Shown here piece after piece: positions 16,744-64,000 of a DNA stretch of 64,000 bases (positions are counted from its first letter, which is position 1; each line of letters opens with the position of its first letter). The notes under the pieces are model-generated. The model did no database searches. It saw only the letters and a program-made list of their open reading frames with translations, and was not told the origin of the DNA. The position numbers and the translations under genes are program-made. The DNA is from Candidatus Tayloriibacteriota bacterium (GTDB taxonomy: Bacteria; Patescibacteriota; Minisyncoccia; Phycocordibacterales; CAIRYW01), in NCBI GenBank assembly GCA_028286725.1, contig JAQBQZ010000012.1, positions 5,562 to 69,561 on the forward strand, in the 5' to 3' direction.

Positions 16744-16823
16744 AATTGTATTTGCTTTAATGTATAAAAATGATATTCTTTATCAAGTACTATAGATTAT
16801 ATAGTACTATAAAAAATATAGCA

Positions 16824-17138: not shown

Positions 17139-17245
17139 AACATTTTCATAATCATTAAGATTTCAAGTATTGCCTCTTTTGACATATTTTAACCTTTGGT
17201 ATATAATACTTAGGTATACTAACTATTAGTAATGCTTACAATATT

Positions 17246-17680: not shown

Positions 17681-17687
17681 TAAATTT

Positions 17688-30030: not shown

Positions 30031-32313
30031 TTATAATTTCATTCTCTTAATTCTAAGTGAGTTCATAACAACCGTCACACTCTCGAATGCCATGATCGCT
30101 CCTGCAATTGCTGGACTCAATGTCCATCCATAGAATGGAAAGAGTATGCCCGCTGCAACTGGAATACCTATTGAGTTGTATCCGAATGACCAAATGAGAT
30201 TCTGCCAAATAGTTTTATTAGTCCTTTGAGCAAGATGTATTGCTTCTGCAACTTTTACAATATCACCTTTCAAAATAACGATGTCCGAGCTTTCGATTGC
30301 AATGTCCGAGCCATCACTCATTGAGATAGCAACATCAGCTTGAGCTAATGCCGGAGCATCATTTACTCCATCCCCAATCATTGCCACCTTAAAACCTTTT
30401 TTCTGTAATTCCTTAACAATATTTAGTTTATCTTCTGGCTTCACATCCGAATATATTTCATCTATTCCGAGTCCTTTAGCTACAGACTCACTTGTTGCTT
30501 TATGGTCGCCAGTTGCCATAACTACTTTGAGTCCAAGTTTTTTGAGTTTTACAATTTCATCTTTTGCTTCTGGTTTTACTGTATCATGTATTTTAATGAG
30601 TGAAAGAACTTCTTTTTCATCTGAAAGATAAAGTTCACGACCGTTTTCAAAACGAGCATCATCGAAATCTTTTTTTATTCCTTCTTCCGATTGCTTTAAT
30701 ACGCCTGCAACATATGCTCGAGAACCAAGATAGTATTTTTTGTTCTGATATTCTGCTGTTACTCCTTTGCCCGCAACTTCATTCAAGTTAGTAATAAGGA
30801 GTGGTTCTACTTTGTTTTCCTTAAGCCATGTCGCTACACTTTCAGATACGGGGTGCTTTGAAGATTTAGTAATTGAGTAGATGAGAGATTGTTTGAATCC
30901 CGTATCTTCTATATCACAAGTATGATTTTTATCTTTGCAATAAACTCCCTCGATAGCTAATTTATTATGTGTAAGTGTCCCAGTTTTGTCGAAGACAATC
31001 GCTGTGACCTTCGCTAGTTTTTCCAAACTCTCCGCATTCTTGATTAGTATTCCTCTTTCCGCACCTCGTCCAACTCCTGTAATGATCGCTGTTGGTGTTG
31101 CAAGACCAAGAGAACAAGGACATGCAATAACAAGCACCGCCATCGTGGTAGAAATGGCATATGCAAAAGCAGTAGTTAAGCCAAGAGTTGCATGGGCAAA
31201 TATCATCCACGATGCAAAAGTGAGTATCGCAATCCCAATTACTACATATACAAATACACCAGATATTCTGTCAGCAGTCCGTTCTATAGGAGCTTTTGAG
31301 TTTTGTGCATTTTCAACGATAGAAATAATATGAGCAAGTGCGGTATCTTTTGGGTCTTTAGTTACCTTGATATGGAGTACTCCTTGAAAGTTTTGCGTTC
31401 CTGCAAATACTTGATCATTTATACCTTTATCTACTGGAATTGCTTCACCAGTAAGGTTTGATTCATCAATTGAGCTTCCACCCTCTACAACAACACCATC
31501 AAGCGGTATTCGCTCATTAGGCTTTACGATAACAATGTCACTAATGTTTACTTTTTCGATTGAGACTTCAATCTCTTTACCATCACGAATAACTAAGGCG
31601 GTCTTACTTGTAAGTCCTGCTAGTTTTTGCAGAGATTCATTTGTCTTTTTCTTTGCACGAGCTTCGAGGTACTGTCCGAAAGCAATAAGACCGATCACCA
31701 CAATAACGACATCATAAAAATTAGAAGTAATATTTATGTACGGTGCTAATTCTTTTTCAAAGGCTGTGACAATAAAAGAGTATATAAAAGCGACGATAGT
31801 TGAGATACCCACAAGAGTATCCATATTTGCTGTGCGAGTCTTAAGAAATATCCAAACTGCTTTTATGTACTTTCTCCCTATGCCAAAGAGTACAAAAGAG
31901 GCAAAAATTGGCATCAGATGGTGAAAAACTTCATACACATTTGGAGACATTGCAGGGATTATATTGCTTTGAGAAAGTACCTCCCAAAACATCATTACAA
32001 AAGAGAATGCAACCATTGGTAAGATGAATTTCATTTCAAGTTCAGTATCTATTGCACCACCATTCTCACCATGATGATGGTCGGCAGAGGGGGACTTTTT
32101 ATCAAAATCTTCAAGCGTGTATCCAAATGGAGAAATAATATTAGAAAGTTTGATTGTATCAATTGGAGTATCGGTAAAACTAATGATGGCTTTTTCTTGA
32201 TTAAGTTTAACTGATACGGACTTAATTCCAGGAACCTGCTTAAGCTTGTCTTCTATAAGAATGACACAACTAGCACAATGCATACCTTTTACTTTATATA
32301 CATCTTCCATCAT
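30031..32313 (-). CDS. copA: copper-translocating P1B-type ATPase
   Basis: N-terminal HMA GMHCASC, TM CPC motif IACPCSLGLATP, phosphorylation site DKTGTLT, hinge GDGVNDAPAL, 760 aa. Confidence 0.9.
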   Translation of the reverse strand: MMEDVYKVKGMHCASCVILIEDKLKQVPGIKSVSVKLNQEKAIISFTDTPIDTIKLSNIISPFGYTLEDFDKKSPSADHHHGENGGAIDTELEMKFILPMVAFSFVMMFWEVLSQSNIIPAMSPNVYEVFHHLMPIFASFVLFGIGRKYIKAVWIFLKTRTANMDTLVGISTIVAFIYSFIVTAFEKELAPYINITSNFYDVVIVVIGLIAFGQYLEARAKKKTNESLQKLAGLTSKTALVIRDGKEIEVSIEKVNISDIVIVKPNERIPLDGVVVEGGSSIDESNLTGEAIPVDKGINDQVFAGTQNFQGVLHIKVTKDPKDTALAHIISIVENAQNSKAPIERTADRISGVFVYVVIGIAILTFASWMIFAHATLGLTTAFAYAISTTMAVLVIACPCSLGLATPTAIITGVGRGAERGILIKNAESLEKLAKVTAIVFDKTGTLTHNKLAIEGVYCKDKNHTCDIEDTGFKQSLIYSITKSSKHPVSESVATWLKENKVEPLLITNLNEVAGKGVTAEYQNKKYYLGSRAYVAGVLKQSEEGIKKDFDDARFENGRELYLSDEKEVLSLIKIHDTVKPEAKDEIVKLKKLGLKVVMATGDHKATSESVAKGLGIDEIYSDVKPEDKLNIVKELQKKGFKVAMIGDGVNDAPALAQADVAISMSDGSDIAIESSDIVILKGDIVKVAEAIHLAQRTNKTIWQNLIWSFGYNSIGIPVAAGILFPFYGWTLSPAIAGAIMAFESVTVVMNSLRIKRMKL

Positions 32314-34640: not shown

Positions 34641-34962
34641 TAGTTTATTTAATATAGCATCTCAATAGGACATTTGCATTCAACAAACAAAAACACCACA
34701 TCTTACAATGTGGTGTTTTTGAAGAGCAAGCTCTTAATGTCCTCCTAGTTGCATATATTTGTATAATTAACCGGTAACCCATTCATTATACACCATAATT
34801 TGAGACCATGGCTAGTCTTTTTAGGTTGTGGTGGGTAAAAGGTCCTCGGAGCAGAGTCAGTGATGACCTTTGTTCCAACGGCGACTCGGATATTGTGCGC
34901 GAGAATACTCGCCCACACATCCTCGCTTGTTGGAAATAAACCCAAAATGCTATAATAATTCA

Positions 34963-35409
34963 ATGAAAAACAAAAACATCATATATATAGTCATTATTAT
35001 AGTTATCGCAATCACATTAGCCGGAGTTCTTTCATTTTTTAATACCGATAATGCAGACACGGGGCCTGGGCAGTACGACGCACTTGCACAGTGCGCAGTA
35101 GAGCACGGTGCAAAATTCTACGGCGCATTCTGGTGCCCACACTGTAGAGATCAAAAGAAAGAGTTTGGTAATTCAGCAAAACTACTCCCCTATGTTGAAT
35201 GTTCTACTCCAGATGCATCAGGTCAGACTCAAATCTGTATAGACAAGAAGATCGAAAGCTACCCTACTTGGGAATTCGCCGACGGATCAAGAATCACAGG
35301 AGGTATCACTCCAGAGCAGCTCGCAGAAAAAACATCCTGTTCTCTAGGAGCCGCAACTTCAACAGCGGCAATAGCAACCACAACATCACCCGCATCAGTT
35401 ACAAAATAA
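34963..35409 (+). CDS. membrane-anchored thioredoxin-fold thiol:disulfide oxidoreductase (DsbA/BdbD-like)
   Basis: N-terminal TM then GAFWCPHCRDQKKEFG (CxxC). Start at 34963, preceded by a tataat box at 34951. Confidence 0.65.
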   Translation: MKNKNIIYIVIIIVIAITLAGVLSFFNTDNADTGPGQYDALAQCAVEHGAKFYGAFWCPHCRDQKKEFGNSAKLLPYVECSTPDASGQTQICIDKKIESYPTWEFADGSRITGGITPEQLAEKTSCSLGAATSTAAIATTTSPASVTK

Positions 35410-35421
35410 TAAATCCTAAAG

Positions 35422-35964
35422 ATGAAAATTTTCATTGAAAACCTCATAGTTGTACTCGTCGTATTCGCACAAATACTCTCTGTCGTTTATATTATTGGCT
35501 TCTTTGTAAAACGAAAAAATCCCAATTCTGAATTCGTAAAAATACTGGGAGATAATGGATTTAAACTCACATTTCTTGTTGCGCTCATCTCAACTTGTGG
35601 CAGTCTCTTTTATTCTGATGTATTAGGATACGAGCCATGTAAATTCTGCTGGTTCCAAAGAATATTTATGTATCCTCAGGCTCTCATTCTCGGTCTTGCT
35701 CTATGGAGAAAAGAATGGAATCTGTATTTCTACAGTATTGTAATGTCAGTTATTGGAGGACTCATCGCGCTCAATCACTACATTCTTCAAATGACAGGTT
35801 CATCAATAATCCCTTGTTCAGCAGTCGGTCAAAGTGTTTCTTGTAGCAAAGTGTTCGTAGTTCACCTAGGATACATCACAATTCCATTTATGGCGCTTTC
35901 AGGATTCGTACTCATGACTCTTGCAATGGTATTTTACAAACAAACTTATGAGATTACACGATAG
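35422..35964 (+). CDS. dsbB: disulfide bond formation protein B (DsbB/BdbC family)
   Basis: 4-TM protein with first-loop CKFCW pair and second-loop Cys pair CSAVGQSVSC, 180 aa, adjacent to a thioredoxin-fold partner. Confidence 0.65.
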   Translation: MKIFIENLIVVLVVFAQILSVVYIIGFFVKRKNPNSEFVKILGDNGFKLTFLVALISTCGSLFYSDVLGYEPCKFCWFQRIFMYPQALILGLALWRKEWNLYFYSIVMSVIGGLIALNHYILQMTGSSIIPCSAVGQSVSCSKVFVVHLGYITIPFMALSGFVLMTLAMVFYKQTYEITR

Positions 35965-38134: not shown

Positions 38135-39622
38135 TTACTTACTCTGATTGTGCGCAAAAGTTGAAATGATTTGTTCAGCTTCAGAAAAATCTTGTTTTCC
38201 TGAAATAGTAGAAATTATATAATTCATATCTGGATAACTATATACATCAACTTCTCCAAATTCACCATTACTATTCCAAACTAGATACGCACGATAAACT
38301 GAAGCTTCACCAATTTTTTTGACAGGCTCTTCGCTTAAAATATTGATATATTTGTTTTCCGCCAACTGATGGTAAAGATCTTTATAGTATTCAATATTTG
38401 TTCCATCATTTTTATAAGCAAGGATATTGATATATGTTGGTGTAACCTTTTTGCTGCTAGACACATATAGAGACGCTTCATCTCTATTCACAATAGAAAC
38501 GACAGCACTCTGAAGCAAAGGCTCTGGCGATACTCCCCAGTTTCTCGGATATTTAATACTAAATTCTGACTTTGAATCAGTGTATGTAAGTTCTGGATTT
38601 TTTATTATTTCGATCATTTGATCGTATCCGGCAGCAATCTCGGTCCTATGACTATACATAAAGTAGAATCCGAAGCAGAGTCCGACAACAAGCACGAGAA
38701 CCCCGAGAACTAAAGAAGTCTTTAATGATTTCTTAACACCATTTTGAGGCAATACATGATGATGCGGAGTTATTCGCTTAAAGATCTGGGCAGCAAAAAT
38801 AATCGCTAATGGAGCCAATATCCATAGACCAAATAATATTTGAAGCCCCAATCCAAAGAGCGGAATAAAAATACTTAAGATATTGAATAAAAATCCGGTC
38901 ACGAAGATTGCAATAAGAGAAATGACCATCCAGACAAAAATATTTAGAAAAATCATCCAGAATTTCCCTCTCGTTAGAGCAAAAGATTCCATAATATTTT
39001 TTATACCGATTTTCTTCTCAGATATAAGAATTGCAACCATTTGAGAAACTCTGACCGATAGAAAAACAAGAGCAAGGAAAAATATAACTGAAGATAAAAT
39101 ACCAAGATATGAATTAAGATACCCGAGACCTAAAGATACGGCAGCCACAACAGAAACAAACCCAAGCGCAATAAACCCAAAAACGATTGCATTCTTAATA
39201 TAGAGAGGAATTAGTTTTGCGGCTTTTTTGAATGCCTTGACCATAGATGGATCTGACATTTCGATTGACTGACTGAATATAGTTAAAGTAAAAATAGTCT
39301 TTAATATGAAAAGTACAAGACCGATTAGGATTCCAGCTAAAATAAACATCACAGGATGCTCTGTAACTGAAACAAGCTGTCCATCAGCAAACTTAGATAA
39401 TTGTGCCATCTCTTCAGACGAACGTGTGAAATTAAAGAGGATTTTAATGTTATCTAATCCCATATATACAATAAACAAAATAGCCAAAAGGATATACCCA
39501 AAAATAAGCGGCAAACTAGCCTTTATTATAAACTTTATATTTTTTCCAAAGTGACCAAATGTAGACTTCAAGACATCAAAAACATTGAGAGGATGGCTTG
39601 CTTCTGGGTTTCTATTTTCCAT
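38135..39622 (-). CDS. hypothetical polytopic membrane protein with a C-terminal extracytoplasmic domain
   Basis: About 8 TM helices in the first 330 aa, then a soluble ~160-aa domain. No known motif. Confidence 0.4.
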   Translation of the reverse strand: MENRNPEASHPLNVFDVLKSTFGHFGKNIKFIIKASLPLIFGYILLAILFIVYMGLDNIKILFNFTRSSEEMAQLSKFADGQLVSVTEHPVMFILAGILIGLVLFILKTIFTLTIFSQSIEMSDPSMVKAFKKAAKLIPLYIKNAIVFGFIALGFVSVVAAVSLGLGYLNSYLGILSSVIFFLALVFLSVRVSQMVAILISEKKIGIKNIMESFALTRGKFWMIFLNIFVWMVISLIAIFVTGFLFNILSIFIPLFGLGLQILFGLWILAPLAIIFAAQIFKRITPHHHVLPQNGVKKSLKTSLVLGVLVLVVGLCFGFYFMYSHRTEIAAGYDQMIEIIKNPELTYTDSKSEFSIKYPRNWGVSPEPLLQSAVVSIVNRDEASLYVSSSKKVTPTYINILAYKNDGTNIEYYKDLYHQLAENKYINILSEEPVKKIGEASVYRAYLVWNSNGEFGEVDVYSYPDMNYIISTISGKQDFSEAEQIISTFAHNQSK

Positions 39623-45479: not shown

Positions 45480-45930
45480 AAAGAAGATACTGCTAGGCAG
45501 CCGCCAAAGACTTTGGACGCCCATACCGTAACCGAATTGCGCTTGCAATAGCACCCTTGAGGAGGCGATTGTAATCGCTGTTATTAGCCAGGTTCTGCAA
45601 ACACTTCCAGTGGAATCGCAGCTTACCGCGATGCATGTTGGTCTCACAACTCCAAGACCAATCTTTGGTCTGAGGAGCATGGGCCCCGATTGAGAAGGAG
45701 ATTGTACCGTGAGCACGAGTACCGCTCCCAAACTGAGCACCAGAAGGAGTTGTGCACTGTGAGATCTTGATTTCTCCGATACTCACTTCTCCTTTTTGTT
45801 TTGGGGTGCGATGACGAGGAAATCCACGATCTTTTTGGCGACGGTGACGAGCGCTGTGTTTCTTGTTTTTCATTGGGATGTTGGGTGAGAAGTCTAACTT
45901 CAAAAAATAAAACCAGACTTCTCACTCGAC
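45480..45930. ncRNA. candidate structured non-coding RNA (GC-rich island; identity undetermined, RNase P RNA is one hypothesis)
   Basis: About 50 percent GC in a ~35 percent GC genome, three overlapping minus-strand ORFs in different frames (stop-codon depletion), flanked by terminator-like hairpins at 45452-45478 and 45885-45930. Minus-strand sense contains CGCGGUAAGCUGCG (compare the GCGGUAAGAGCGCA element of RNase P RNA). Confidence 0.3.
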
Positions 45931-46015: not shown

Positions 46016-46409
46016 GGGGATGACAGGCATAGACATGTAGATCCTTCATTAATGTGCGCAATCGAGTATCCTAAAACCTCGTAAAACTTATAGGAAACTC
46101 AAGTGCAAACGCACGAAAAGTTGTTTCTCCATATTTTGGAGCAAACGATTTTGCTTTCGCAACAGCTCGAGCATAGCTCGCTGAAGCTTTAAGCCATCTG
46201 ACTTCTTTGCTCTCTCTGGGAGAAGCTCAGGTGTAATACTCAGAGGATAGGATAGGGGCATTCCCGTCCCCTCTCCGAAACTTGGGATAGTTGTATATGT
46301 GTTCTGCTTTTCTAAAAGCATATGCAGCGAAACCAAAAGAGAAGATACATTGCGTAGACTCATTTCTGAAATTTACATGCACGGGGGTTCGATTCCGCCC
46401 ATCTCCACA
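46016..46409 (+). ncRNA. ssrA: tmRNA (SsrA), one-piece
   Basis: 5' GGGGATGA pairs with 3' ..GGGGGTTCGATTCCGCCCATCTCC-A (tRNA-like domain). PK1 region CCUCGUAAAAC...AGUGCAAACG resembles E. coli GCCUCGUAAAA...AGUCGCAAACG. Tag ORF GCA AAC .. GCA TAG is followed by a terminator hairpin. Confidence 0.8.
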
Positions 46410-46412
46410 CAA

Positions 46413-51331: not shown

Positions 51332-52222
51332 TTATACCTTCAACTCCTCCACCCCTTTCACAAAGTCTTCTTTCGGTTCCCAGCCAATGAGATTTTTGGC
51401 AACTGTCGTATCTGCAAGCGTATGTCGAGGCTCGATTCGAGGCGCAATGAATTCATATTCTCCTCCGATCATCTGAGCAATTTCAAGCACTGAATGTTGC
51501 TCTCCTCCTCCAATATTCATAATCTCTCCTTTCCCCACCTTATCGCTTTCCATTGCAAGAATATTTGCACGCACTACATCTCGTACATGAGTGAAGTCTC
51601 GTGTCTGAAGTCCATCTCCGGTAATCGTCATTTTTTGTCCTTCTTTTTTTTGTTTGAGGAATCGAGCGATCACAAGCGCGTATGCGCCCTCGCTTGATTG
51701 TCTTGGACCATACACATTAAAGTATCGAAGTGATACTGTTTCAATACCATAGATCTCTGACCAGATACGACAGATATGCTCTCCAACATATTTTTGCATT
51801 CCGTAAGGACTGAGCGGTTGTGGAAGCATCGTCTCAATAAGCGGCATTGTAGATTGATTACCGTATGCTGCCGATGAAGCAGAATAAACAACTCTTTTGA
51901 CCCCAGCAAGTTGTGCGGCGATCAAAATATTTTGCGTTCCATTTATATTGACCTCGTTGGTTTCAATCGGATTTTCGATTGAATACTGTACTCGTGGAAG
52001 TGCTGCAAAATGAAATACCCCGTCGATACCTGCAAAGAGAGGCTTGATCTCTTCAATATTTCTAATATCAGCTTTGTGGAAAATTGCTTTTGGATTGAGA
52101 TTCTCCTCAAATCCTCCAGAAAGGTTGTCTATAATATGCACTTCATCCCCTCTTTCAATAAGAACATCGACGAGATTGGATCCGATAAACCCAGCACCTC
52201 CTGTAACAATGTATTTTTTCAT
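51332..52222 (-). CDS. NAD-dependent sugar-nucleotide epimerase/dehydratase (SDR family)
   Basis: MKKYIVTGGAGFIGSNLVD Rossmann motif, later YSASSAAYG and YxxxK. 3-nt spacer to the DedA gene. Confidence 0.75.
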   Translation of the reverse strand: MKKYIVTGGAGFIGSNLVDVLIERGDEVHIIDNLSGGFEENLNPKAIFHKADIRNIEEIKPLFAGIDGVFHFAALPRVQYSIENPIETNEVNINGTQNILIAAQLAGVKRVVYSASSAAYGNQSTMPLIETMLPQPLSPYGMQKYVGEHICRIWSEIYGIETVSLRYFNVYGPRQSSEGAYALVIARFLKQKKEGQKMTITGDGLQTRDFTHVRDVVRANILAMESDKVGKGEIMNIGGGEQHSVLEIAQMIGGEYEFIAPRIEPRHTLADTTVAKNLIGWEPKEDFVKGVEELKV

Positions 52223-52283
52223 TTTTAATTTAAAATTATGAATTATAATTTTTGATTTTTGGTTTTTAGGTTTTGATTTTACT

Positions 52284-53627
52284 TTATCTCCCCTGTCTCG
52301 ACATTAATATTTTGATTGTCTTTAGCGCAATAATTATATCAAGTGGAAATGATCTGTGCTTGATGTAATAAAGATCGTAAGAAAGTTTGTTCTGAGTCTC
52401 TTCGACATCCACTCCATGATGAGGATGGTTCTCATGATAGAGCTGCGCCCACCCAAAGAGTCCTGGCTTTATGATATGACGAACATTGTAATATGGTATT
52501 TGTTTTTCGTAGAGCTTGACTCCCGATGGTAATTCAGGACGAGGTCCAACAATGGTCAGGTCTCCTTTGATGACATTCACGAGCTGTGGAAGCTCATCAA
52601 TTCGAGATACTCTAAGAAATGAACCAAATTTTGTCACCTTGTTGTCGGTGGCTTTTGAAAGATCTGTTTCATTTCGATTCATACTTCTAAACTTCAAGAT
52701 TCGAATAGGTCGATTATTCTTTCCCACTCTTTCCTGAACAATAAATAAGGGTCCGTTATCCTGAATCTTGATACCTATATATACAAAGAGATAGAAAGGA
52801 AGCGTGATTACAAATGCTGGCAGAGCAAGCACGAGGTCCATCACTCTTTTCAGGAATTCATAAGTATCTCTCCGTCCTGTTGAAATATTTTCCAAGAACC
52901 ATCCGTAATCGATGAGCGACACAGGAAGCCGATCAAACATATCTTCATAAAGATCATAAAAATCAATGAAACTTATTTTCGAAAAGATAAGCTTGTAGAG
53001 ATGCGGCAAGATTGGTGATACAAGTTCTGAACGAGAGTCAACGATAATAGTTTTTATCTTTTCAACCTTGATGAGGCGCTCTATCTCTTCAATACCCAGA
53101 TCCTTTATCGACTCCGTATCAATAATACGAACAACGCTAAATCCATACTGAGTATTCTGATTGACTTCATCACGAAGACTTAAAGCGTTTGATCCGCCCG
53201 CGATCATAAGCGCATGAGATTTTGTTTTTACAGAAAAGAGTGACACCGCATACACTCTCCATATAAATGAAAGTCCGAGAGAAATGAGGATGTAGAAGAA
53301 AAGTATTGTCTTTGGCGCCACTCCAAAATATGGAAGCGAATAGAAGAAAAAGATAGCAACAACACTGTTAAATAGCTGCGTTTTTAAAAGCAACTCCGGC
53401 AATCGCTTTCGCTTTGCGATGCGCTGCTTTTCATAAAGTCCTGCAATAAAGAAAAAAGCGATCCATACAATAGAGATGATCGAAAATGGAATAGCGAGAC
53501 TGTAGAGCGCATTAAAAGAAGGAATCTCAAAATTTCTAATAAAGAGAGAGAGCCAGAGAGCAACAAAAAAAGCCACAATATCTCCCAAAAGAAGTATGAG
53601 TGATTCTTTTTTGTTTCCGATGCGCAT
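52284..53627 (-). CDS. undecaprenyl-phosphate sugar phosphotransferase (WbaP/CpsE-type bacterial sugar transferase)
   Basis: 5 N-terminal TM helices, C-terminal catalytic domain with KFRSM and RIDELPQLVNVIKGDLTIVGPRP. Confidence 0.8.
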   Translation of the reverse strand: MRIGNKKESLILLLGDIVAFFVALWLSLFIRNFEIPSFNALYSLAIPFSIISIVWIAFFFIAGLYEKQRIAKRKRLPELLLKTQLFNSVVAIFFFYSLPYFGVAPKTILFFYILISLGLSFIWRVYAVSLFSVKTKSHALMIAGGSNALSLRDEVNQNTQYGFSVVRIIDTESIKDLGIEEIERLIKVEKIKTIIVDSRSELVSPILPHLYKLIFSKISFIDFYDLYEDMFDRLPVSLIDYGWFLENISTGRRDTYEFLKRVMDLVLALPAFVITLPFYLFVYIGIKIQDNGPLFIVQERVGKNNRPIRILKFRSMNRNETDLSKATDNKVTKFGSFLRVSRIDELPQLVNVIKGDLTIVGPRPELPSGVKLYEKQIPYYNVRHIIKPGLFGWAQLYHENHPHHGVDVEETQNKLSYDLYYIKHRSFPLDIIIALKTIKILMSRQGR

Positions 53628-53720
53628 ATGGATAATGATTTATTTGCGGTTAATTTTGGGATAGATCCTTTCCTGTGTTAAGATATACTATCATAAATTC
53701 AATCAGTATAAAAATGTTCA

Positions 53721-54881
53721 TTGTCTATGCAAAATAAGAAAAAGATAATCCTGGTTATTACAAAATCGAGCTGGGGTGGCGCTCAACGCTATGTCTTTGA
53801 CCTTGCCACATCGCTCCAAAAAGAAGGTTTTGAGATTATTGTTGCGACCGGAGGCCAAAAAGCTCTCTACCACAAACTGAAAGCAGAAGGTGTAAAAGTA
53901 ATCGAGATCCCTGGAATGGAACGCGACCTATCACTCCCAAAAGAGATCAAAGCATTCGGCTTTTTGTATAAATTGTTCAAAAAAGAAAAACCAGATATCA
54001 TCCATTTAAACAGTTCGAAAGCTGGACTCGGAGCGCTCGCAGGCAGGCTCACTGGCATCAAAAAAATAGTGTTCACGATGCACGGACTCGCAACGAATGA
54101 AAACCGCCCACCCTACCAGAAACGTTTTATACGACTTATATATATATTAACCATTATTCTCTGTCACAAAACGATCGCAGTATCAGATGCACTCAAAAAG
54201 CAATCAGAACGAGAACTTGGAATGGTCTCTCACAAAATCACAGTCATCAGAAACGGAATCATGTCTCCCGACTTTCTCACAAAACATGATGCGAGACACC
54301 TCCTCATCCAATCAATGATCAAGGGTAAAGCAGATATCAAGCTCGCATCATTTACAATCGGAACAATAGGTGAACTTCATCCCATCAAAGGACATTCATA
54401 TCTCCTCGAAGGATTCCAGACTATTCTTCGCCACTCTGCCCTGCCTCTTTATCTTTTTATAATCGGCGATGGGCAAGATAACAAAAAAATACAAAAGCAG
54501 ATCGACACAATGAAATTATCTGACAATGTATTTATGTGCGGACATGTTGATAATGCAGAAACAATACTTAAGGCATTCGATATTTTTATTCTTCCATCGA
54601 TCTCTGAAGGGTTACCTTATGTTTTGGAAGAAGCGGGATTTGCAGGACTTCCTACGATTGCTTCAAATGTCGGCGGAATTCCAGAAATAATTGAAGACAA
54701 AAAAACAGGACTCCTCATCAAACCGCAATCAGCGAGCGACATTGCTCACGCCATACAGAAACTTGTATATGAACCAGAGCTTCGAAAAGATATCGGGCTA
54801 AATCTTCACAAAAAAGTAACGACAGAATTCATTTTGGAAAAGATGGTTTTGGATACCAAGAAAATCTACGGCATCATCTAA
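53721..54881 (+). CDS. glycosyltransferase family 4 (GT-B fold)
   Basis: C-terminal domain EGLPYVLEEAGFAGLPTIASNVGGIPEIIEDKKTGLL (E-x7-E region). Confidence 0.8.
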   Translation: MSMQNKKKIILVITKSSWGGAQRYVFDLATSLQKEGFEIIVATGGQKALYHKLKAEGVKVIEIPGMERDLSLPKEIKAFGFLYKLFKKEKPDIIHLNSSKAGLGALAGRLTGIKKIVFTMHGLATNENRPPYQKRFIRLIYILTIILCHKTIAVSDALKKQSERELGMVSHKITVIRNGIMSPDFLTKHDARHLLIQSMIKGKADIKLASFTIGTIGELHPIKGHSYLLEGFQTILRHSALPLYLFIIGDGQDNKKIQKQIDTMKLSDNVFMCGHVDNAETILKAFDIFILPSISEGLPYVLEEAGFAGLPTIASNVGGIPEIIEDKKTGLLIKPQSASDIAHAIQKLVYEPELRKDIGLNLHKKVTTEFILEKMVLDTKKIYGII

Positions 54882-54926
54882 ATATCCACAGCCATTTTAA
54901 GTTCTTTTTGTGATATAATTCAACTT

Positions 54927-55217
54927 ATGTCACTTCAATTTGAAGATCAGAATAATCTCCTTGTGCGAAGAAATACGTATCAACAAAACTATGGCCCAAT
55001 AGTGGCTCTTCTACTCAGATTTCATATAGCAAAAACCGAAAAAACAGCCAACAAGATACTATTCATCGTGTCTATTCTTGTATTTATTTGTGCAGCAACG
55101 CTTATTGTAAGAAACGTTATAAAAGCCAACACCCCTGTAAAAGTTAAATACAATCTCTCAAAAGAAGGATTTAATAAACTTCCCCAAAATGTGCAGGTTA
55201 AAATTTTGACACAATAA
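54927..55217 (+). CDS. small hypothetical single-TM protein, translationally coupled to the Cys-rich pilin-like gene
   Basis: 96 aa with TM ILFIVSILVFICAATLIV. Stop at 55217, 2 nt before the pilin-like ATG. Confidence 0.4.
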   Translation: MSLQFEDQNNLLVRRNTYQQNYGPIVALLLRFHIAKTEKTANKILFIVSILVFICAATLIVRNVIKANTPVKVKYNLSKEGFNKLPQNVQVKILTQ

Positions 55218-55219
55218 AA

Positions 55220-57235
55220 ATGCGAAATATATTCAGAAAGCAAAATAGCGGGCGAAATTACTCTGCCGGTTTTACACTGATCGAACTCATGGTTGTCGTG
55301 GCCATTGTTTCACTTCTTGCGAGTGTAATCGTAGGTCTCGTTTCTTCTTCTCGAGCAAAAGCCAAAGATGCAAATATTGCCACAGAAATTCACCTCATAC
55401 AGCTCGCCCTTGAGGAATACAATACGGGCCATGGAGGATTTCCAAATCCTCAAGGCGGTGACCAATCATCTGACAATATGTACTGTATTGGTTCGACTGA
55501 CTGCATATATAATGGCTATTTAGTAAGTACGCAACTTAAAGGTACAGATATTGCGTTCAATAAGATAAACTCAAACCTTCTTGCATCAAGCTTCCCAGTC
55601 TTTACAAGCGAGCAGATCGCAACACTCGATAACGACAACAAAGGATACATATATGTTGCTTGCGGTGGATCAAATCCTACTTGCCCGAACGATCAGGCAA
55701 TACTTATGTATCCAAAAATTCAAGCCGGTTCTTTTTCTGTCATAAATGTAGGAACCTTTAATGAATCAAGCTGTGAGATCGCTCAATGCCAGGAAAATTA
55801 TGGACACAATTGCGGAAACGGATCGCAAGAGTGCTCAGTTTTTTCAAATACAGAAGGCTCATGTAACTACGATGTAAATGGAAGTGGTGGATCAAGTGGC
55901 ACTTGTACTTGCGGAGGCAACAATTCTGATTGTTCAATGTTTTGTGGCGATAGTTCAAGCAATGACGGCTGTAGCTACGATCCAAATGGAACAGGATCTT
56001 GTAGTTGTAACACCCTTCAATACAGCGAGAGTAGCTACCCTTATTGCTCAAGCGACAGTAACACTGGTAATTATAGTTATGATAGCGGTAATAGTGGATG
56101 GTGCAGCGGAAGTGGTTATAGCTACTATGGATCAGGCACACCTTCTAACTACCCTTACTATAACGGCACAGGTAGCTGTATCTCTGTAAATGTTTCTTCA
56201 TCGTACGGCAATGGCCAAAGTGGAAGCTATTGTAATATGCCGTATGATCCAGGATATCAAGAGAGTTCATATCCTTGGTTTACAAGCGACAGTACAGCGG
56301 GATCCTATGGATATTCTTCTGGAAACGGTTGGTCTGGATATGGATATTACGGAACATCTTATCCAAGTGGTTACCCTTACGCAGGAGGGTCTGGAAGCTG
56401 TATCTACATATCAGTATCTAGTTCATATGGTGGAGGCTACTATACAAACTATTACTGCAACTCTCAAAACATAGTGTATGGATGTACCGATTCAGGTGCA
56501 TGCAACTATGACCCAAATGCCAATTCAAATTCAGGATGTGATTACTCTTGCCACGATACAACGGTATATGGATGCACAGATGGTTCAGCTTGCAACTACA
56601 ATTCGAGTGCGAATAGTAATGATGGAAGCTGTGAATACATGAGTTGTCACACTGTGTATGGATGTACGAGCGGTTCAGCTTGCAACTACAATTCGAGTGC
56701 AACAAATGATGACGGAAGTTGCGAATACACGAGCTGCATGACAACTTATGGATGTACTGATAGCACAGCTTGTAACTACAACTCAAGTGCGAACTATAGC
56801 GACGGAAGCTGTGACTATTCAAGCTGTCATTCATACTCCTGCCAAGGAACTCCATCTTGTGGTTATGGTGACTCATATTCATGTCAAAACTACAATAACT
56901 ACAGCGGCAGTAACTGTTCTTGGAGCAGCAACGGCGGGTCATGTTCAGGAACATATTACACATCAGGAGATTGTAGTGCATTCAATAATGACTACTGGGC
57001 TTGTAGCAACAATGGATGTAATACAAATTACGATGATAATAGCAACTTCTATTGTTCTGGTATGTATAACACCGGAAACGATTGCTCATCACTTGATTCA
57101 GGAAGCTGTGGATCATACTCTGGCTGTTCATGGAACGACTACGGAGGTTCTTGTAACGTATCTCGAAACTGTAGCGACAACACCGATTCAAACAGTTGTG
57201 GAAACACATCAGGATGTACTTGGACATACTCTTAA
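55220..57235 (+). CDS. giant type IV pilin-like protein: canonical prepilin N-terminus plus pilin globular domain, then a ~500-aa Cys/Gly/Ser/Tyr/Asn-rich repetitive extension
   Basis: MRNIFRKQNSGRNYSAGFTLIELMVVVAIVSLLASVIVGLVSSSRAKAKD (G|FTLIE, Glu+5), pilin-like domain ending YVACGGSNPTCPND, then two ~75-aa repeats and four ~30-aa tandem repeats YGCTD(S/G)xACNY(D/N)xxANxxxGSC(D/E)YxSC. About 70 Cys, 671 aa. Confidence 0.7.
   Translation: MRNIFRKQNSGRNYSAGFTLIELMVVVAIVSLLASVIVGLVSSSRAKAKDANIATEIHLIQLALEEYNTGHGGFPNPQGGDQSSDNMYCIGSTDCIYNGYLVSTQLKGTDIAFNKINSNLLASSFPVFTSEQIATLDNDNKGYIYVACGGSNPTCPNDQAILMYPKIQAGSFSVINVGTFNESSCEIAQCQENYGHNCGNGSQECSVFSNTEGSCNYDVNGSGGSSGTCTCGGNNSDCSMFCGDSSSNDGCSYDPNGTGSCSCNTLQYSESSYPYCSSDSNTGNYSYDSGNSGWCSGSGYSYYGSGTPSNYPYYNGTGSCISVNVSSSYGNGQSGSYCNMPYDPGYQESSYPWFTSDSTAGSYGYSSGNGWSGYGYYGTSYPSGYPYAGGSGSCIYISVSSSYGGGYYTNYYCNSQNIVYGCTDSGACNYDPNANSNSGCDYSCHDTTVYGCTDGSACNYNSSANSNDGSCEYMSCHTVYGCTSGSACNYNSSATNDDGSCEYTSCMTTYGCTDSTACNYNSSANYSDGSCDYSSCHSYSCQGTPSCGYGDSYSCQNYNNYSGSNCSWSSNGGSCSGTYYTSGDCSAFNNDYWACSNNGCNTNYDDNSNFYCSGMYNTGNDCSSLDSGSCGSYSGCSWNDYGGSCNVSRNCSDNTDSNSCGNTSGCTWTYS
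56474..56832 (+). repeat. four ~90-nt tandem repeats inside the pilin-like gene
   Basis: Units start near 56474, 56563, 56652 and 56743. ggttcagcttgcaactacaattcgagtgc is identical at 56582 and 56671. Confidence 0.75.
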
Positions 57236-57249: not shown

Positions 57250-57286
57250 AAAAACCCTTGGACCACACGGTCCAAGGGGTTTTTTA
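57250..57286. terminator. bidirectional terminator between the pilin-like gene (+) and ftsW (-)
   Basis: aaaaacccttggacc-acac-ggtccaaggggttttt. Confidence 0.65.
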
Positions 57287-57297: not shown

Positions 57298-58428
57298 TTA
57301 CATCCCCAAGAATTCATTCTTGATTAAGTCTCTGTGTGCCTCTCTCCTATAGCGACGCATCCCCATGATCATACCAAGTGCGGTGAAAGAGATAAGTAAA
57401 TGTGATCCACCATAGCTCACAAAAGGAAGTGGGATCCCTGTCACAGGCATCACTCCCATATTCATCCCTACATTGATAATAAAGTGTCCAATGAACATGA
57501 TAGCAACCCCTGAAGCAAAAAGAATCTCAAAGTTAGTTTCCCCTTTCTGCGCATTATCCATAATACGAAATATCAAAAGTCCGAATGATCCAATAAGGAA
57601 AAGGACACCAATAAATCCCCACTCTTCAGAGAATGCGGCGAAGATAAAGTCTGTCTCGTATTCAGGAAGAAAATTAAGTCTTGATTGTGTTCCATATCCG
57701 ATCCCCTTGCCGAGTACCCCGCCTGATCCCACTGCGATTGTTGATTGATACGAGTTATATCCTGCGCCACGGACATCAGCAAGCGGATTTAAGAATGTTT
57801 TGATACGATTCTTTTGATAATCCTTAAACACATAAGCCCAAAGCCCTGCAAATGTGACAGCACCAATAAGTACAACTGTAAAAAGATGTTTCTTTGAGAT
57901 GCCTGCCAGAAGGATCATTCCAAACCAAATAAAAAAGAGGATGATCCCGAGTCCCAAGTCAGGCTGCAGCATCACCAACAAAAAAAGCCCAAATGCATAA
58001 AGGCCCGAAACCAGAATATGCTTCACGTTCCCTATCTCAACATGTCTCTTTGAAAAATATTTTGAGAGCACGAGAATAAGTGCGAGCTTCGCGAAGTCTG
58101 CTGGCTGAAAAGAAAAGAACCCAAAATCGATCCAGCTTTTAGCCCCCTTGATAGTTCGTCCTACAAGAAGTACAAGTACAAGGAATGCGACCGCAGTCAT
58201 ATAAAATGCGACCACAGGAGTCGTCTTTCGAAAGAATCTAAAATCAATAAAGCTCAAAGCGAAGAAAATAATAAACGATACGATCACCCAAACAACCTGC
58301 TTCGAGAATACATTGGTCTCTCCGGTAAATGAATACATAGTTACAAGCCCTCCCGTAACAAGAGGAATAAGAGAGCCCACCAATATCCAATCCATCGAAT
58401 GGAATGCTTTTGAGATTTTTTGAACCAC
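57298..58428 (-). CDS. ftsW: SEDS-family peptidoglycan glycosyltransferase (FtsW/RodA)
   Basis: 10-TM protein with the conserved periplasmic loop NSYQSTIAVGSGGVLGKG...SRLNFLPE..TDFIFA, 376 aa. Confidence 0.8.
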   Translation of the reverse strand: MVQKISKAFHSMDWILVGSLIPLVTGGLVTMYSFTGETNVFSKQVVWVIVSFIIFFALSFIDFRFFRKTTPVVAFYMTAVAFLVLVLLVGRTIKGAKSWIDFGFFSFQPADFAKLALILVLSKYFSKRHVEIGNVKHILVSGLYAFGLFLLVMLQPDLGLGIILFFIWFGMILLAGISKKHLFTVVLIGAVTFAGLWAYVFKDYQKNRIKTFLNPLADVRGAGYNSYQSTIAVGSGGVLGKGIGYGTQSRLNFLPEYETDFIFAAFSEEWGFIGVLFLIGSFGLLIFRIMDNAQKGETNFEILFASGVAIMFIGHFIINVGMNMGVMPVTGIPLPFVSYGGSHLLISFTALGMIMGMRRYRREAHRDLIKNEFLGM

Positions 58429-58440: not shown

Positions 58441-59253
58441 TTATTGCCAGTTTCTCGGTATCGGTCTTGGAATTACATCAATCTTTGAAACATCAAAATC
58501 AAATTTATAGTTCCAAGTGAACGTCACATTTGTTTTGTCGCTTGGTGAAATGTAGTCAATGATAGTTGCTGACGATTCGTGAGCGTTTCCATCTTTGTCG
58601 TATACAACCGCAATCACTTCCATATTTTTCATTGCGTACACTTCGTCGTTTTCAATATCTGCAGTGATTCGAGATCTTGTATCAACAACTTCATTATTAA
58701 CATTTGTAACCTTGATATTAGGATCAATGAATTGCCCTTTCTGCCACACAATAGCATCACTATTTATTTCAAACGTTATCTTTGAAGCTTCTCTATTTCC
58801 TGTAAGAATTGAATGCTCAAATATTGGGAATACTCTTCCTGGCGGTACAAATGTTTGACCAGGAACTTCAAAAAGCAAAATATTCTTTTCATCATACACT
58901 TTGAATATATATTGCATATTTGTTGAGAAGACATTTTGGTTTGGATTCTCGACGAGCGCAAGCGCACTATAGGCCCCTGGACCCGCTTTGAAAAGACGAC
59001 TGTAGACAGTGATCGGCGGTCGAGATTCAAGAGGACAAACGAGCGCACATATTCCTCCACAGTCTACCCCCATCTCATCCTGATTTTGAACATTATCAAA
59101 ACAACTCGGAGCCTTATTTAAAAATTTAGTATATACAAAAATTCCAAGCGCAATAAAGATTACTGCCCAAATAGTTCCTAGTATTTTGAATTTTCGTCGT
59201 GATCCCCAGTTCATGTTTAAAGTGTTATTTATATAGATGTAGTATAACATCAA
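58441..59253 (-). CDS. hypothetical membrane-anchored secreted protein
   Basis: N-terminal TM ILGTIWAVIFIALGIFVY, Cys cluster CFDNVQNQDEMGVDCGGICALVCP, 270 aa. Confidence 0.4.
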   Translation of the reverse strand: MMLYYIYINNTLNMNWGSRRKFKILGTIWAVIFIALGIFVYTKFLNKAPSCFDNVQNQDEMGVDCGGICALVCPLESRPPITVYSRLFKAGPGAYSALALVENPNQNVFSTNMQYIFKVYDEKNILLFEVPGQTFVPPGRVFPIFEHSILTGNREASKITFEINSDAIVWQKGQFIDPNIKVTNVNNEVVDTRSRITADIENDEVYAMKNMEVIAVVYDKDGNAHESSATIIDYISPSDKTNVTFTWNYKFDFDVSKIDVIPRPIPRNWQ

Positions 59254-59605: not shown

Positions 59606-59606
59606 T

Positions 59607-59712
59607 GCTGGCGATTACCTACTTTCCCCTCCATAGAGTATCATCGGTACTACGAGGCTTAACTTCTGAGTTCGGAATGAGATCAGGTGTGGCCCTCGCG
59701 TCAAATCACCAA
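59607..59712 (-). rRNA. rrf: 5S rRNA
   Basis: Reverse complement contains CCGAACTCAGAAGTTAAGCCTCGTAGTACCGATG. The terminal helix GGTGATT/AATCGCC pairs. Confidence 0.75.
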
Positions 59713-60145
59713 CACAAAATTTTCAATTTTGTTTGTTAACTTCATTTATTCAAAAGCAAGAGATCTTTCAATCTCACGAAGCAGAAACAATTTAAACATA
59801 AAATTGTATCTCTTAATCAATAGAATCTTTAAATTCTATTTGATTTTCACATTTCCTAATAGGAATCGAACATTAGTACACCTCGACTTAAACGATTACT
59901 CGCCTTACATCTAGTGCCTATCAACGTGATCATCTCTCACGAGTCTCAAACGATTCCTAATCTTAAGGTTGGCTTCGCTCTTAGATGCTTTCAGAGCTTA
60001 TCCAATCCCGACATAGCTACGGAGCGGTGCCACTGGCGTGACAGCTCCCAGACCAGAGGTCAGTTCATCCCGGTCCTCTCGTACTAGGGACAAATCCTTT
60101 CAAGAATCAACGCCTGCAGTAGATAGGAGACCAACCTGTCTCACG

Positions 60146-60565
60146 CTTATGTTCACAAATTTTACTTTGTTACGACTCAAATTACTTTGAGGTTCGGACT
60201 ATATCTTCATCTTTCCTTGCGGATTCAGATGGCTTACTTGTAGTCTCTACGAGCCTCCATACATTTAAATATTTAAACTTTTAAATATAAGGTGTTCTCT
60301 CGGTATTGTCCTCAACATCACTTGTAGGATTTCACCGATATTAGTAAGCGAGTTTATATATGTTTCCATATACAACCGCCGTGATTCATTTTACATAATA
60401 AATATGTATCTTTGGTTCCAACAAATTAATCTATACTCTAGAATTAATTTTTTTTGTATCTCTATAATTTTCTTTTTCAATATAACAGTCTAAGTTCATT
60501 TGTATGTACTTATATTTTTGTCTCGTGGGATTCAGACTGTCCAAAAGATGATAATCATCTCCTAG
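60146..60565 (-). other. group I intron in 23S rRNA at the I-CreI homing site (E. coli ~2593), ORF-less
   Basis: 23S exons read ..GGGTTCAGACCGT | CGTGAGACAGG.. with 420 AT-rich nt between. 5' exon ends in U, insert ends in G, P7-like GAGACUA...UAUAGUCC pairing flanks a GCAA-loop hairpin. Confidence 0.7.
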
Positions 60566-61230
60566 ACGGTCTGAACCCAGCTCGCGTATCTTTTTAATTG
60601 GCGAACAGCCAAACCCTTGGGACCTTCTCCAGCCCCAGGATAAGATGAGCCGACATCGAGGTGCCGAACTCCGCCGTCGATATGGACTCTTAGGCGGAAC
60701 TAGCCTGTTATCCCCAGAGTAGCTTTTGTCCGATAATCTCCCACCGCATCTAATGCGAATGGTCGGTTCACTATGTTCTGCTTTCGCATCTGCTCGACAT
60801 GTTCGTCTTGCAGTCAAGCCAGCTTATGCCATTGCACTATCGGCACGGTTTCCATTCGCGCCTAGCTGACCTTAATAAACTCCTCCGTTACTTTTTGGGA
60901 GGATAGCGCCCCACTAAAACTGCCCATCAGATACTGTCTCTCGTGGTTTTTGCCCACGAGGTTAGAGAATACACTGTCACAGATGGCTATTTCACTTTCG
61001 AGTAGAGTACAACCGAAATCGTACACATCAAACCTCTCGCCACTATTCTACGCAGTAAAAACGTACCCTCAATATCAAATTGCAGTAAAGCTTCTGGGGT
61101 CTTTTCGTCTAACTGCAGGTAACCGGCATCTTCACCGGTACTGTATTTTCACCGAGCAAGTCCTCGAGACAGTTCCCCAGTCATTACACCATTCGTGCGC
61201 GTCTGAACTTACCAGACAAGGAATTTCGCT

Positions 61231-61435
61231 CAACTATTCCTCTAAGTTGGACTCTAACTTTATCCTTTCTTACTTTCGTAAGAAGTGGGACATATGGCGT
61301 TGGTACGCTTGTTAACCATCATTGGACTAATTATATGTATTACTACAATATAGGTAGCTTTTTTTGTGTAATCTAACTGTTTTCATTCATTCAACTTGTT
61401 TACTTTTTTCTACAACAGTCCCAGTCCTTGCACCA
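61231..61435 (-). other. ~205-nt intron-like insertion in 23S rRNA at E. coli position ~1931 (candidate minimal group I intron or IVS)
   Basis: Exons read ..GGTCCTAAGGT | AGCGAAATTCC.. (contiguous in E. coli). 5' exon ends in U and the insert ends in G. Confidence 0.55.
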
Positions 61436-61455
61436 CTCAATAAATGAGTAGCACA

Positions 61456-61490
<35 letters not shown>

Positions 61491-62903
61491 CAGGGCTTAT
61501 AACAGTCAGCTTGATATAATCGCACCGCCGTTATTTGACCTTCTGGCATTGGTCAGGTGTCACCCCCTATACATCCTCTTACGAGTTCGCAGGGAGCTGT
61601 GTTTTTGGTAAACAGTTGCCAGGGATACTTTAGCTGCGGCCTCCTAAATAAATAGGAGGCAAGCCTTATTCCGAAGTTACGGCTGCTTTTTTGCCGAGTT
61701 CCTTGAGGACATCTCACTCGTTCGTCTTGGTCTACTCGACCTGATCACCTGTGTCGGTTTGCGGTACGGATTGCTTATGGTTATGCTTAGAAATTTTTCT
61801 CGGAAGCGTGCTTTATAGACTTCACTGTATTGCTACAGCTTACATTACAATCTTGGAATTTGCTTTAAACACAGGGCGGATTTTCCTACCCTGATTCCTT
61901 AAAATAAACACGACAATCCAATAAGTCGCTCTATATACTACCCTTCGTCCTTCCATCGCACCATAAGCAAGTTACGGAATATTAACCGTATGTCCATCGA
62001 GTTCGACTTTCGTCATCCCCTTAGGACCGACTAACCCTTGGCTGATCTTCATCGCCAAGGAAACCTTGATCTTTCGACGTGAAGGTATCTCACCTTCATT
62101 GTGGTTACTTGTGCCAACATTCTTACTTCGTAACGCTCCAGCATGGCTCACGCCTTTGCCTTCACAGCAGATACGAATACTCTCCTACCGCTCCATTTTT
62201 CCGGAGAAAAATAAAGCCCTCAATTTCGGTACAATGCTTAGCCCCGATTATCTTTGGCGCAGAATCTCTAAGTGAGTGAGCTGTTACGCTATCTTTAAAG
62301 GATGGCTGCTTCTAAGCCAACCTCCTCAGTGTCTGAGAAATTCCACCACCTTATGATGCACTTAGCATTAATTTAGGGACCTTAATTTGAGATCTAGGGC
62401 TGTTTCCCTTTTGACCAGTGTAGCTTAGCCCACACGGTCTAACTGCCATACTTTTAATTTCTGGTATTCGGAGTTTGATAGGACCCACGAGATTTCTCCC
62501 TGTTGGGTCCTTCCAGTGCTCTACCCCCAGAAGGAACATATGACGCTAACCCAAAAGCTATTTCGGAGAGAACCAGCTATTACCAGGCTCGATTAGCTTT
62601 TCACTTCTTACCACAAGTCATCCGAATGCGTTGAACGACATAACGGTTCGGGCCTCCCTTTTGATTTCTCAAAAGTTCACCCTGCTCATGGCAAGCTCGC
62701 TCTGGCTTCGGGTCTAATGTGTACAACTTATTCGCGCTATTAACACTCGGTTTCCCTACGACTCCATCCTCTCGGACTTAGCCATGCTGCACACATTAAC
62801 TCGTTGGCTCATTCTTCAATAGGCACGCCGTGACGGGACAATAAATTGCCCGCTCCGACTCCTTGTAAGCATATGGTTTCAGATCTATTTCACTCCCCTC
62901 AAC

Positions 62904-62949
<46 letters not shown>

Positions 62950-64000
62950 TTGTATAATATTTAGCCTTACCGGTTAGTTCCGGCAGATTCCCCCGAGCCA
63001 TTCGTGTCTCGAGGTACTCAAGAGTAACAATAAAAGATCTTTTGTTTTCGGATACGGGACTATTACCCACTGCGGTTTTGCTTTCCAGCAAATTCTCCTA
63101 ACAAAAAATTTTGTAACTTTTCTGTAATAAATACAATTTGTTATCTTACAACCCCATTCACATCACGCGAAACATGAAATCGAAAAATCGAAATCACACT
63201 CCACGTGATGCAAACGGTTTGGGCTTCTTCGTTTTCGCTCGCCGCTACTAACGAAATACTTATTAGTTTCTATTCCTCTGGGTACTGAAATGTTTTACTT
63301 CCCCAGGTATGCATCTAAGCTTACGCTATAGATAGTCAGTAAACTGACTGAGTTTCCTCATTCGGAGATCGACGGGTCGAAGGTTGCTTGGCACCTCACC
63401 GTCGCTTATCGCAGCTTTACTACGTCCTTCATCGCTTATACAAGCCAAGGCATCCACCATATGCTCTTACTTTCCTATTAGGAAATGTAAAAACCACAAT
63501 TCTATGTTTACTTATTTTTGTTTGCTTGCTTTGAATAAAAATATCTTTCGATATTTTTATTTTGCTTTTGAATTCTGTCTCCGCAAGAAAAGACCTCCAA
63601 TTCATTATTTTCACCGGGCGGTGAAAAAACAAAAAGTGCGGGACAGCATGAAGTTTTCAAATTACACTCGCTCGGTATCAAAAAACCGCTCTAACAAAGC
63701 GGTTCGGACAAGGCCATCACTGGCTTTATCTTTATGCCGCTGTAGTTGGGTGGTTTCTTGTATTCATTAAGTATTGGCATATTATACTCGTATTGGATTA
63801 GAAGTCAAATGATTATTGGGTATCGGATTTTGGGGGCCAAATTGAGCACAAAATAGAGCAAAATGCCCCGAAGCCTACGGCTTCGGGGCATTCCCATTTT
63901 GGTCACTTTTACCTCAAAATCTCAATTAAAAACTATTCAGACAAACCAATTTTGTTGAGTACAACCCTGTGTGAAAAATCAAACACATCTCGAACAAGTT

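Follow-up and report, generated by a model that had tools for sequence, protein, structure and literature searches.

Bacteria of the Candidate Phyla Radiation (CPR) are believed to live attached to other microbial cells. Their best-supported means of attachment are type IV pili. To our knowledge, a few Saccharibacteria are the only CPR members in which the adhesive parts of the pili are known. Here we analyze a locus in a 64-kb stretch of DNA from a Candidatus Tayloriibacteriota bacterium (contig JAQBQZ010000012.1; hereafter the window, numbered from its first nucleotide), where the gene for a 671-residue type IV pilin lies beside genes for a small membrane protein, which we call sm96, and for three sugar enzymes. 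Modular pilins, whose pilin module is extended at the C-terminus by a module not specific to type IV pili, are established and widespread, including in the CPR (Raynaud et al., 2021; PMC8179133). Named examples are PilB (pilin and vWA) and PilC (pilin and lectin) of Streptococcus sanguinis, and CofB of enterotoxigenic Escherichia coli. In Nanosynbacter lyticus TM7x (Saccharibacteria), the minor pilins PilX1 and PilX2 have large C-terminal modules and are implicated in host-cell binding (PMC11623550).

The protein analyzed here resembles these pilins. Like PilX1 and PilX2, it is a CPR pilin with a large C-terminal module. As with other modular pilins, the genome is of the monoderm type with one type IV pilus machinery, and ligand binding would be expected at the filament. 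There are also clear differences. The PilX modules are lectin-like or β-propellers, whereas the tail here is made of disulfide-rich repeats, and no sequence relationship between PilX and the 671-residue pilin was found beyond helix α1. Unlike the C-terminal modules of known modular pilins, this tail is a mosaic of short Cys-rich repeats with 50 cysteines and no recognized domain. The pilin gene lies far from the pilus cluster. Its obligatory companion, a gene for a small tail-anchored protein, has not been described for modular pilins. Our analysis suggests that the protein is probably a modular, disulfide-rich type IV pilin and a probable adhesin or stalk, which forms a cassette with sm96 in a variable slot of a backbone of envelope-glycan, RodA and SecDF genes. 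Modular pilins themselves are known. The new details are the repeat tail, its kinship to repeats in cargo of the type IX secretion system (T9SS), the obligatory small partner and the hotspot in which the cassette is found. The elements of the locus are the following.

51332-52222, minus strand: short-chain dehydrogenase/reductase (SDR) nucleotide-sugar epimerase/dehydratase, extended type, 296 aa (PF01370, E=1.5e-65)
52284-53627, minus strand: polytopic initiating phosphoglycosyltransferase (PGT, Bac_transf), 447 aa (PF02397, E=2.7e-55)
53721-54881, plus strand: glycosyltransferase family 4 (GT4) enzyme, 386 aa (PF00534, E=2.3e-36; PF13439, E=3.5e-26)
54927-55217, plus strand: sm96, 96 aa, tail-anchored by a single transmembrane (TM) segment, without a Pfam family
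55220-57235, plus strand: modular type IV pilin, 671 aa (PF07963 N_methyl as the sole family match)
aa 1-17, plus strand: pilin leader
aa 18-184 (55271-55771), plus strand: pilin module (head)
aa 185-265 (55772-56014), plus strand: conserved Cys module
aa 266-416 (56015-56467), plus strand: two ~75-residue Y/S/G-rich repeats
aa 417-540 (56468-56839), plus strand: four 30-residue GCTDxxACNYN repeats
aa 541-671 (56840-57232), plus strand: C-terminal Cys/Trp repeats
57255-57278, both strands: bidirectional intrinsic terminator with a 10-bp stem, seven GC pairs and a T run on each strand
57298-58428, minus strand: RodA, a SEDS peptidoglycan polymerase (TIGR02210, 369 bits; cut-off 336.7)

The N-terminus of the pilin has the features of a class III signal peptide, taken as a short basic leader with Gly as its last residue, followed by Phe or Met at +1, Glu at +5 and a hydrophobic stretch of about 20 residues. 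It reads ...NYSAG|FTLIELMVVVAIVSLLASVIV, with the cleavage motif G17|F18-T-L-I-E22. The N_methyl profile PF07963 scored 32.0 bits (cut-off 21.2) and TIGR02532 scored 26.6 bits (cut-off 16.3), which confirms the textbook prepilin start described in a first-pass annotation of this DNA. The best NCBIfam similarity is to GspG (E=2.3e-10) and is restricted to the N-terminal region. The first ~65 residues of the mature pilin align to α1 of GspG and of pilins with solved structures in the PDB.

Two cysteine pairs in the head, C89-x5-C95 and C148-x6-C155, are invariant in an alignment of five relatives. The D-region pair noted in the first-pass annotation is present as C148/C155, although its x6 loop is short and C89/C95 forms a second pair. 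A profile search with the head found that its signature, ‘YCIGxxDC ... KGYIYxSCG...C’, recurs in ordinary pilins of 169-196 residues. The same head is found in proteins of 232-688 residues whose tails differ, with several kinds of Cys-rich repeats or a Pro/Thr linker; one conserved head carries tails from 0 to ~500 residues. Because the head alone makes ordinary pilins and bears other tails elsewhere, we regard it as a pilin module that is complete without the tail, and the tail as an add-on. Judged from its sequence, the 671-residue protein is a modular pilin as defined above (PMC8179133). In a search of contigs, the head profile was swamped by the generic GFTLIELLV pattern and returned ordinary pilins of many phyla and no close relative.

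The tail is rich in few residue types. Residues 181-671 contain Ser (22%), Gly (14%), Tyr (12%), Asn (12%) and Cys (10%), 71% in total and 84% once Thr and Asp are included. An extension built of repeats had been correctly recognized, and the statement that it consists almost entirely of these five residues was somewhat overstated. The tail holds 50 of the 54 cysteines in the protein and 18 N-x-S/T sequons. The consensus of the four 30-residue repeats is ‘YGCTDxxACNYNxxAxxxDGSCxYxSC’, and Tandem Repeats Finder reported a period of 90 nt with 76% matches in the DNA. No off-diagonal matches were obtained when the protein was compared to itself with blastp, and the likeness of the two ~75-residue units was judged by eye. 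No match to the tail was found among the solved structures and annotated domains of Pfam, NCBIfam and the PDB.

Repeats that are 45-56% identical to the four-repeat block are found in hundreds of Flavobacteriales proteins, at 3-19 copies each; most of these proteins have PF18962, the sorting domain of the T9SS. One Candidatus Buchananbacteria protein also contains the repeat. As in the tail, the repeats in the Flavobacteriales cargo (‘GCTDxxAxNYNxxAxxDDGSC’) are ~30 residues long and arranged in tandem in extracellular proteins. The partner domains are different: export and anchoring involve a C-terminal T9SS domain in Flavobacteriales and a prepilin N-terminus here. The structure prediction proposed in the first-pass annotation was run with AlphaFold2 on the four GCTD copies and gave pLDDT values of 86-94, and in this model the ~30-residue repeat folds confidently as a unit. 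We located no published name or function for it, and a full-text search with the motif gave only irrelevant papers. A disulfide repeat common to CPR pilins and Flavobacteriales T9SS cargo deserves a name.

The gene 5’ of the pilin gene encodes sm96; an NCBI protein from Candidatus Taylorbacteria has the same sequence. The stop codon of sm96 (TAA, 55215-55217) is followed by the pilin ATG 2 nt on, and the two open reading frames (ORFs) are close without overlapping. A search of 5.8 billion clusters identified a family of ~70 tail-anchored members with an N-terminal ‘MxVEFxE’ motif, all hypothetical or unnamed and none with a match in Pfam. In distant loci, the small protein encoded ahead of the pilins has 51-118 residues, with this motif, a stretch similar to ‘LIKxGxAKD’ and a C-terminal TM segment. 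The weakest match, P0309, is found among ribosomal-protein genes, an unrelated context, and we did not count it as a member.

The pairing of the small protein with the pilin is conserved in every relative examined, in agreement with the tight pairing first proposed. A gene of the sm96 type precedes the pilin gene or pilin cluster in every pilin-bearing locus examined, and the confident family members that we sampled are all in this context. In the close relatives L001, L003 and L158 the order GT4-small gene-pilin is kept, and the junction of 2-3 nt is also present in L001. The short contig L002 begins inside a cut-off small ORF directly 5’ of its pilin gene. The small gene is duplicated alongside pilins in L087, L101 and L103. 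It remains 5’ of the pilins in L098, L100, L109 and L124, where these are on the other side of GT4. The family is absent where the slot is empty of pilins. Only one copy was found in the window, and the pilins of the pilus cluster have no such neighbor. The sequences indicate that sm96 and the pilin form a conserved two-gene cassette in a variable slot next to GT4. The small protein may be a membrane partner or regulator that serves the pilin specifically.

The five ORFs called in the first-pass annotation are exactly at the positions given there, and the family matches agree with the identities assigned to them. The three sugar genes were described as immediately preceding the small protein. 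Their position is as described. The orientation needs a correction: SDR and PGT are on the minus strand and are read away from the other three genes, with a gap of 93 nt in between. The genes for GT4, sm96 and the pilin point in the same direction, separated by 45 nt and 2 nt. The pilin and RodA genes converge on the terminator at 57255, and no strong terminator was found ahead of it within the GT4-sm96-pilin stretch. The shared orientation, the short gaps and the position of the only strong terminator 3’ of the pilin suggest that the three genes are probably co-transcribed. Promoter-like matches at the locus did not outnumber those in shuffled sequence and were not used. The best NCBIfam matches of the SDR protein are GalE and TviC, short of the equivalog cut-offs. 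The top model for PGT is TIGR03025 (EPS_sugtrans), which PGT narrowly misses (292.1 bits; cut-off 295.55). The label ‘WbaP-type’ holds for its architecture of N-terminal TM segments, CoA_binding_3 and Bac_transf. It does not hold for the WbaP model TIGR03022, against which PGT scored 163.8 bits (cut-off 403). PGT is WbaP-like in architecture and not a WbaP equivalog.

We scanned metagenomes with PGT as the query and obtained 80 loci at 41-54% identity. Contents of the slot were counted in 26 distinct PGT-anchored loci that cover RodA, GT4 and PGT. The order p270-RodA-[slot]-GT4-PGT-(SDR)-SecD-SecF is conserved wherever contig coverage allows, confirming a conserved neighborhood in related CPR genomes. 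RodA is the backbone flank of the slot and adjoins it in all related loci. Pilin genes are present in 13-14 of the 26 loci. There are one to three of them, on the GT4 strand, and they are of an ordinary kind (160-290 aa, 0-8 Cys). Another 12 loci have no pilin, and the distance between RodA and GT4 is 3-180 nt. GT4 is ~38-50% identical to that in the window, equally with and without a pilin.

GT4, sm96 and the pilin diverge faster than the other genes of the locus. Among close relatives, identities are 77-92% for the RodA, SecD, SDR and PGT proteins, 56-59% for GT4, 38-51% for sm96 and 45-49% for the pilin head. The same trend is seen in the DNA, where GT4 is 65-69% identical and the flanks are 72-82% identical. 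This pattern fits a joint diversifying pressure on surface features, and equally a faster-evolving glycosyltransferase. We considered, and set aside, a recombining hypervariable cassette that includes GT4; the DNA comparison shows only faster divergence, and exchange is not proven. Other cargo is also found near GT4. In L117, PGT-GT4 heads a larger cluster (11360-18192) with GT4, a GtrA-methyltransferase, a 580-residue protein with seven TM segments, GT2, GT4 and GT4 downstream of PGT. In L138 (3024-9896), a 2290-residue GH43/Ig (Big)/PG_binding protein is encoded between GT4 and PGT. Since such cargo and pilins are found there, the surroundings of GT4 appear to be a hotspot for surface-protein genes.

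Glycan genes differ in the closest long relative, L001 (3943-6955). A HAD hydrolase replaces the DedA gene of the window, and an extra epimerase and a 146-aa gene are found between SDR and PGT. Glycan-gene content thus varies even among close relatives. The p270 gene (58441-59253, minus strand) encodes a 270-residue protein with one TM segment, a Cys cluster and weak similarity to FxLYD/WxLIP_HBD. It adjoins RodA wherever related contigs reach the far side of RodA, and is 29-38% identical in distant loci.

The window also encodes functions for cleavage, oxidation and assembly of a pilin.

292-12521, minus strand: complete type IV pilus cluster (Pfam matches)
2392-3210, minus strand: PilD prepilin peptidase (PF06750, E=3.7e-29; PF01478, E=1.3e-11)
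34870-35964, plus strand: DsbA-like thioredoxin with a CPHC motif (PF00085, weak), then DsbB (PF02600, E=1.8e-12)

The cluster contains PilM, a PilN-like protein, PilO, PilB, a response regulator, PilT, PilC, three small pilins, PilD and three larger pilin-like proteins. PilB, PilT, PilC, PilM and PilO are located within 4976-12521. Seven prepilin motifs were found in the window, six of them in the cluster. The cognate peptidase and assembly machinery expected for a type IV pilin are therefore both present. CPR genomes are enriched in thiol-disulfide oxidoreductases, which were proposed to fold pilins (bioRxiv 10.1101/335083), and the DsbA/DsbB pair fits this enrichment. A secreted protein with 54 cysteines would need such an extracytoplasmic pair to form its disulfides. 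All these proteins would be expected to act on the 671-residue pilin as well. Its prepilin would insert into the membrane through the N-terminal hydrophobic helix and be cleaved by PilD after Gly17, and its 54 cysteines would be oxidized by DsbA/DsbB. The single pilus machinery, encoded 43 kb away, would present it, most likely as a low-abundance or tip subunit. The disulfide-braced repeat tail of ~490 residues would then reach outward and serve as a stalk or an adhesin in contacting host cells or surfaces. SDR, PGT and GT4 would build an undecaprenyl-phosphate-linked envelope glycan, which the clade presumably makes with or without the pilin.

Several features are found near the cluster genes and the oxidoreductases. 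PilB and PilT are separated by the response-regulator gene (7282-7713). Upstream of the gene for a 132-residue pilin are a terminator and an AT-rich gap of 277 nt (4699-4975), which suggests that this pilin is the separately promoted major one. A DsbD_2/HMA fusion (28997-30028, minus strand) adjoins a copper P-type ATPase (30031-32313).

The modular-pilin interpretation has to be weighed against other explanations. The length of the ORF could reflect collapse or expansion of low-complexity repeats during assembly, or a decaying pseudogene. The low-complexity composition and ORFs of 100-190 residues in alternative frames would be in line with this. However, an identical 671-residue ORF is present in an independent Logan assembly, and assembly collapse is unlikely because the DNA repeats are only 76% alike. 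P0008, a protein of 688 residues, has the same module order and is 37% identical over 99% of the length. The number of cysteines is even, many Cys columns are invariant among relatives, and a strong terminator directly follows the stop codon of the pilin. We conclude that the ORF is not an artefact, which would be highly improbable on this evidence. A different question is whether the protein enters a filament. The prepilin-type N-terminus could serve only as an anchor and export signal, as in archaeal class III substrates, so that the pilin is never polymerized, the tail is a surface stalk, coat or adhesin, and sm96 is its membrane partner. The location of the gene, 43 kb from the pilus cluster and outside its six pilin genes, is compatible with this, as are the very bulky tail, the partnership of sm96 with the slot family and never with the cluster pilins, and the N-terminal similarity to a pseudopilin, GspG. 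On the other hand, the conserved Glu5 and the full head, which is also found as pilins of ordinary size, argue for assembly competence, and the modular pilins of comparable size that have been studied enter filaments (PMC8179133). We consider an anchor-only role rather unlikely. Some points also count against a polymerized adhesin pilin with unlinked sugar genes. Incorporation of a 70-kDa subunit into a filament is predicted from sequence. The word adhesin for the probable role of the tail is argued from architecture, the tail being unmatched to structures and domains. The AlphaFold2 model of the head, built from an alignment of five sequences only, has a helix at residues 20-71 followed by strands and a mean pLDDT of 47.6; at this low confidence, its topology is compatible with a pilin and a globular fold is not proven. 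Finally, the fast divergence of GT4 and its probable co-transcription with the pilin also fit a functional link between the two.

Such a link was the main proposal of the first-pass annotation, in which the three sugar genes served this pilin. SDR, PGT and GT4 would make a lipid-linked oligosaccharide that is put on Ser, Thr, Asn and Tyr residues of the tail by a distant or novel transfer enzyme, giving a glycosylated, disulfide-knotted pilus. Apart from the gene arrangement and the shared terminator, support for the proposal comes from the pilin genes beside GT4, on its strand, in about half of the related loci, on GT4 and the pilin being the fast-diverging genes of the locus, and on the Ser content and sequons of the tail. 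PGT, GT and SDR genes near a pilin also recall the O-linked systems of Neisseria (pgl/PglL), Pseudomonas aeruginosa (PilA with TfpO (PilO) or TfpW) and Acinetobacter (TfpO/TfpM). In those systems, however, the pilin-linked gene encodes the oligosaccharyltransferase and not PGT or GT. No match to Wzy_C/PglL, GT-C enzymes such as TfpW, STT3, PMT or Wzx was found among the scanned ORFs of at least 120 residues in the window, in agreement with the earlier remark that no oligosaccharyltransferase was visible. Wzx and ABC flippases were likewise not found in the window, which has PGT and GT4. A 495-residue protein with ~10 TM segments (38135-39622, minus strand), the one polytopic protein left unassigned, was considered as a hidden GT-C protein or oligosaccharyltransferase and set aside, as it gave no Pfam or PDB signal for this. 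Unlike in the O-linked systems, the sugar genes here are kept in relatives that have no pilin. Sugar genes and pilin do not consistently co-occur across the relatives: RodA-GT4-PGT is without any pilin in 12 of the 26 loci, and PGT-GT4 heads the larger glycosyltransferase cluster in L117. The strong synteny of the clade and the use of the slot as a surface-gene hotspot can explain the adjacency. In the CPR, pilin glycosylation has only been predicted so far, including for TM7x (PMC11623550). Because the PGT-GT4(-SDR) backbone persists without the pilin and its GT4 is unchanged, a dedicated pilin-glycosylation system is not supported, and we consider a glycosylated pilus of this kind unlikely. 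The sugar genes largely belong to a separate conserved envelope set in relatives, the outcome that the first-pass annotation itself had named as contrary to its proposal. A general glycosylation pathway could act on the Ser-rich tail, an idea that the likely co-transcription of GT4 and the pilin leaves standing. A more speculative combination is that sm96 and the pilin are an undescribed accessory cassette of Paceibacteria, in which sm96 escorts or gates a hypervariable adhesin pilin and the co-transcribed GT4, with PGT, decorates the Ser-rich tail without a classical oligosaccharyltransferase. We regard it as a long shot. If true, decoration of the tail in this way would be the first mechanism of pilin glycosylation in the CPR, and new in general.

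As a modular pilin of probable adhesin function, the protein gives Paceibacteria a concrete candidate adhesin pilin, with a tail that diversifies quickly on a conserved head. The locus defines a genomic hotspot for pilin swapping and an undescribed, conserved small partner. It also calls for caution: in small genomes with strong synteny, sugar genes beside a pilin need not mean a glycosylation system.

Additional features were observed elsewhere in the window. The 495-residue membrane protein at 38135-39622 has a soluble C-terminal domain of ~170 residues, and its only match is a weak one to PsbP_2 (E=0.015). A 970-residue protein (25394-28306, minus strand) contains six repeats of the fn3/purple-acid-phosphatase-N type and two peptidoglycan-binding domains, and a smaller, paralogue-like protein is encoded at 14170-15294. 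The tmRNA gene is located at 46016-46410 on the plus strand (98.8 bits). An ORF of 136 residues immediately upstream of this gene (45493-45903), read from the other strand, is probably spurious. The 5S rRNA gene is at 59606-59713. The 23S rRNA gene (59855-63480, minus strand) is ~700 nt longer than the bacterial model, and contains a group I intron at 60175-60393 and an ORF of 128 residues at 60431-60817.

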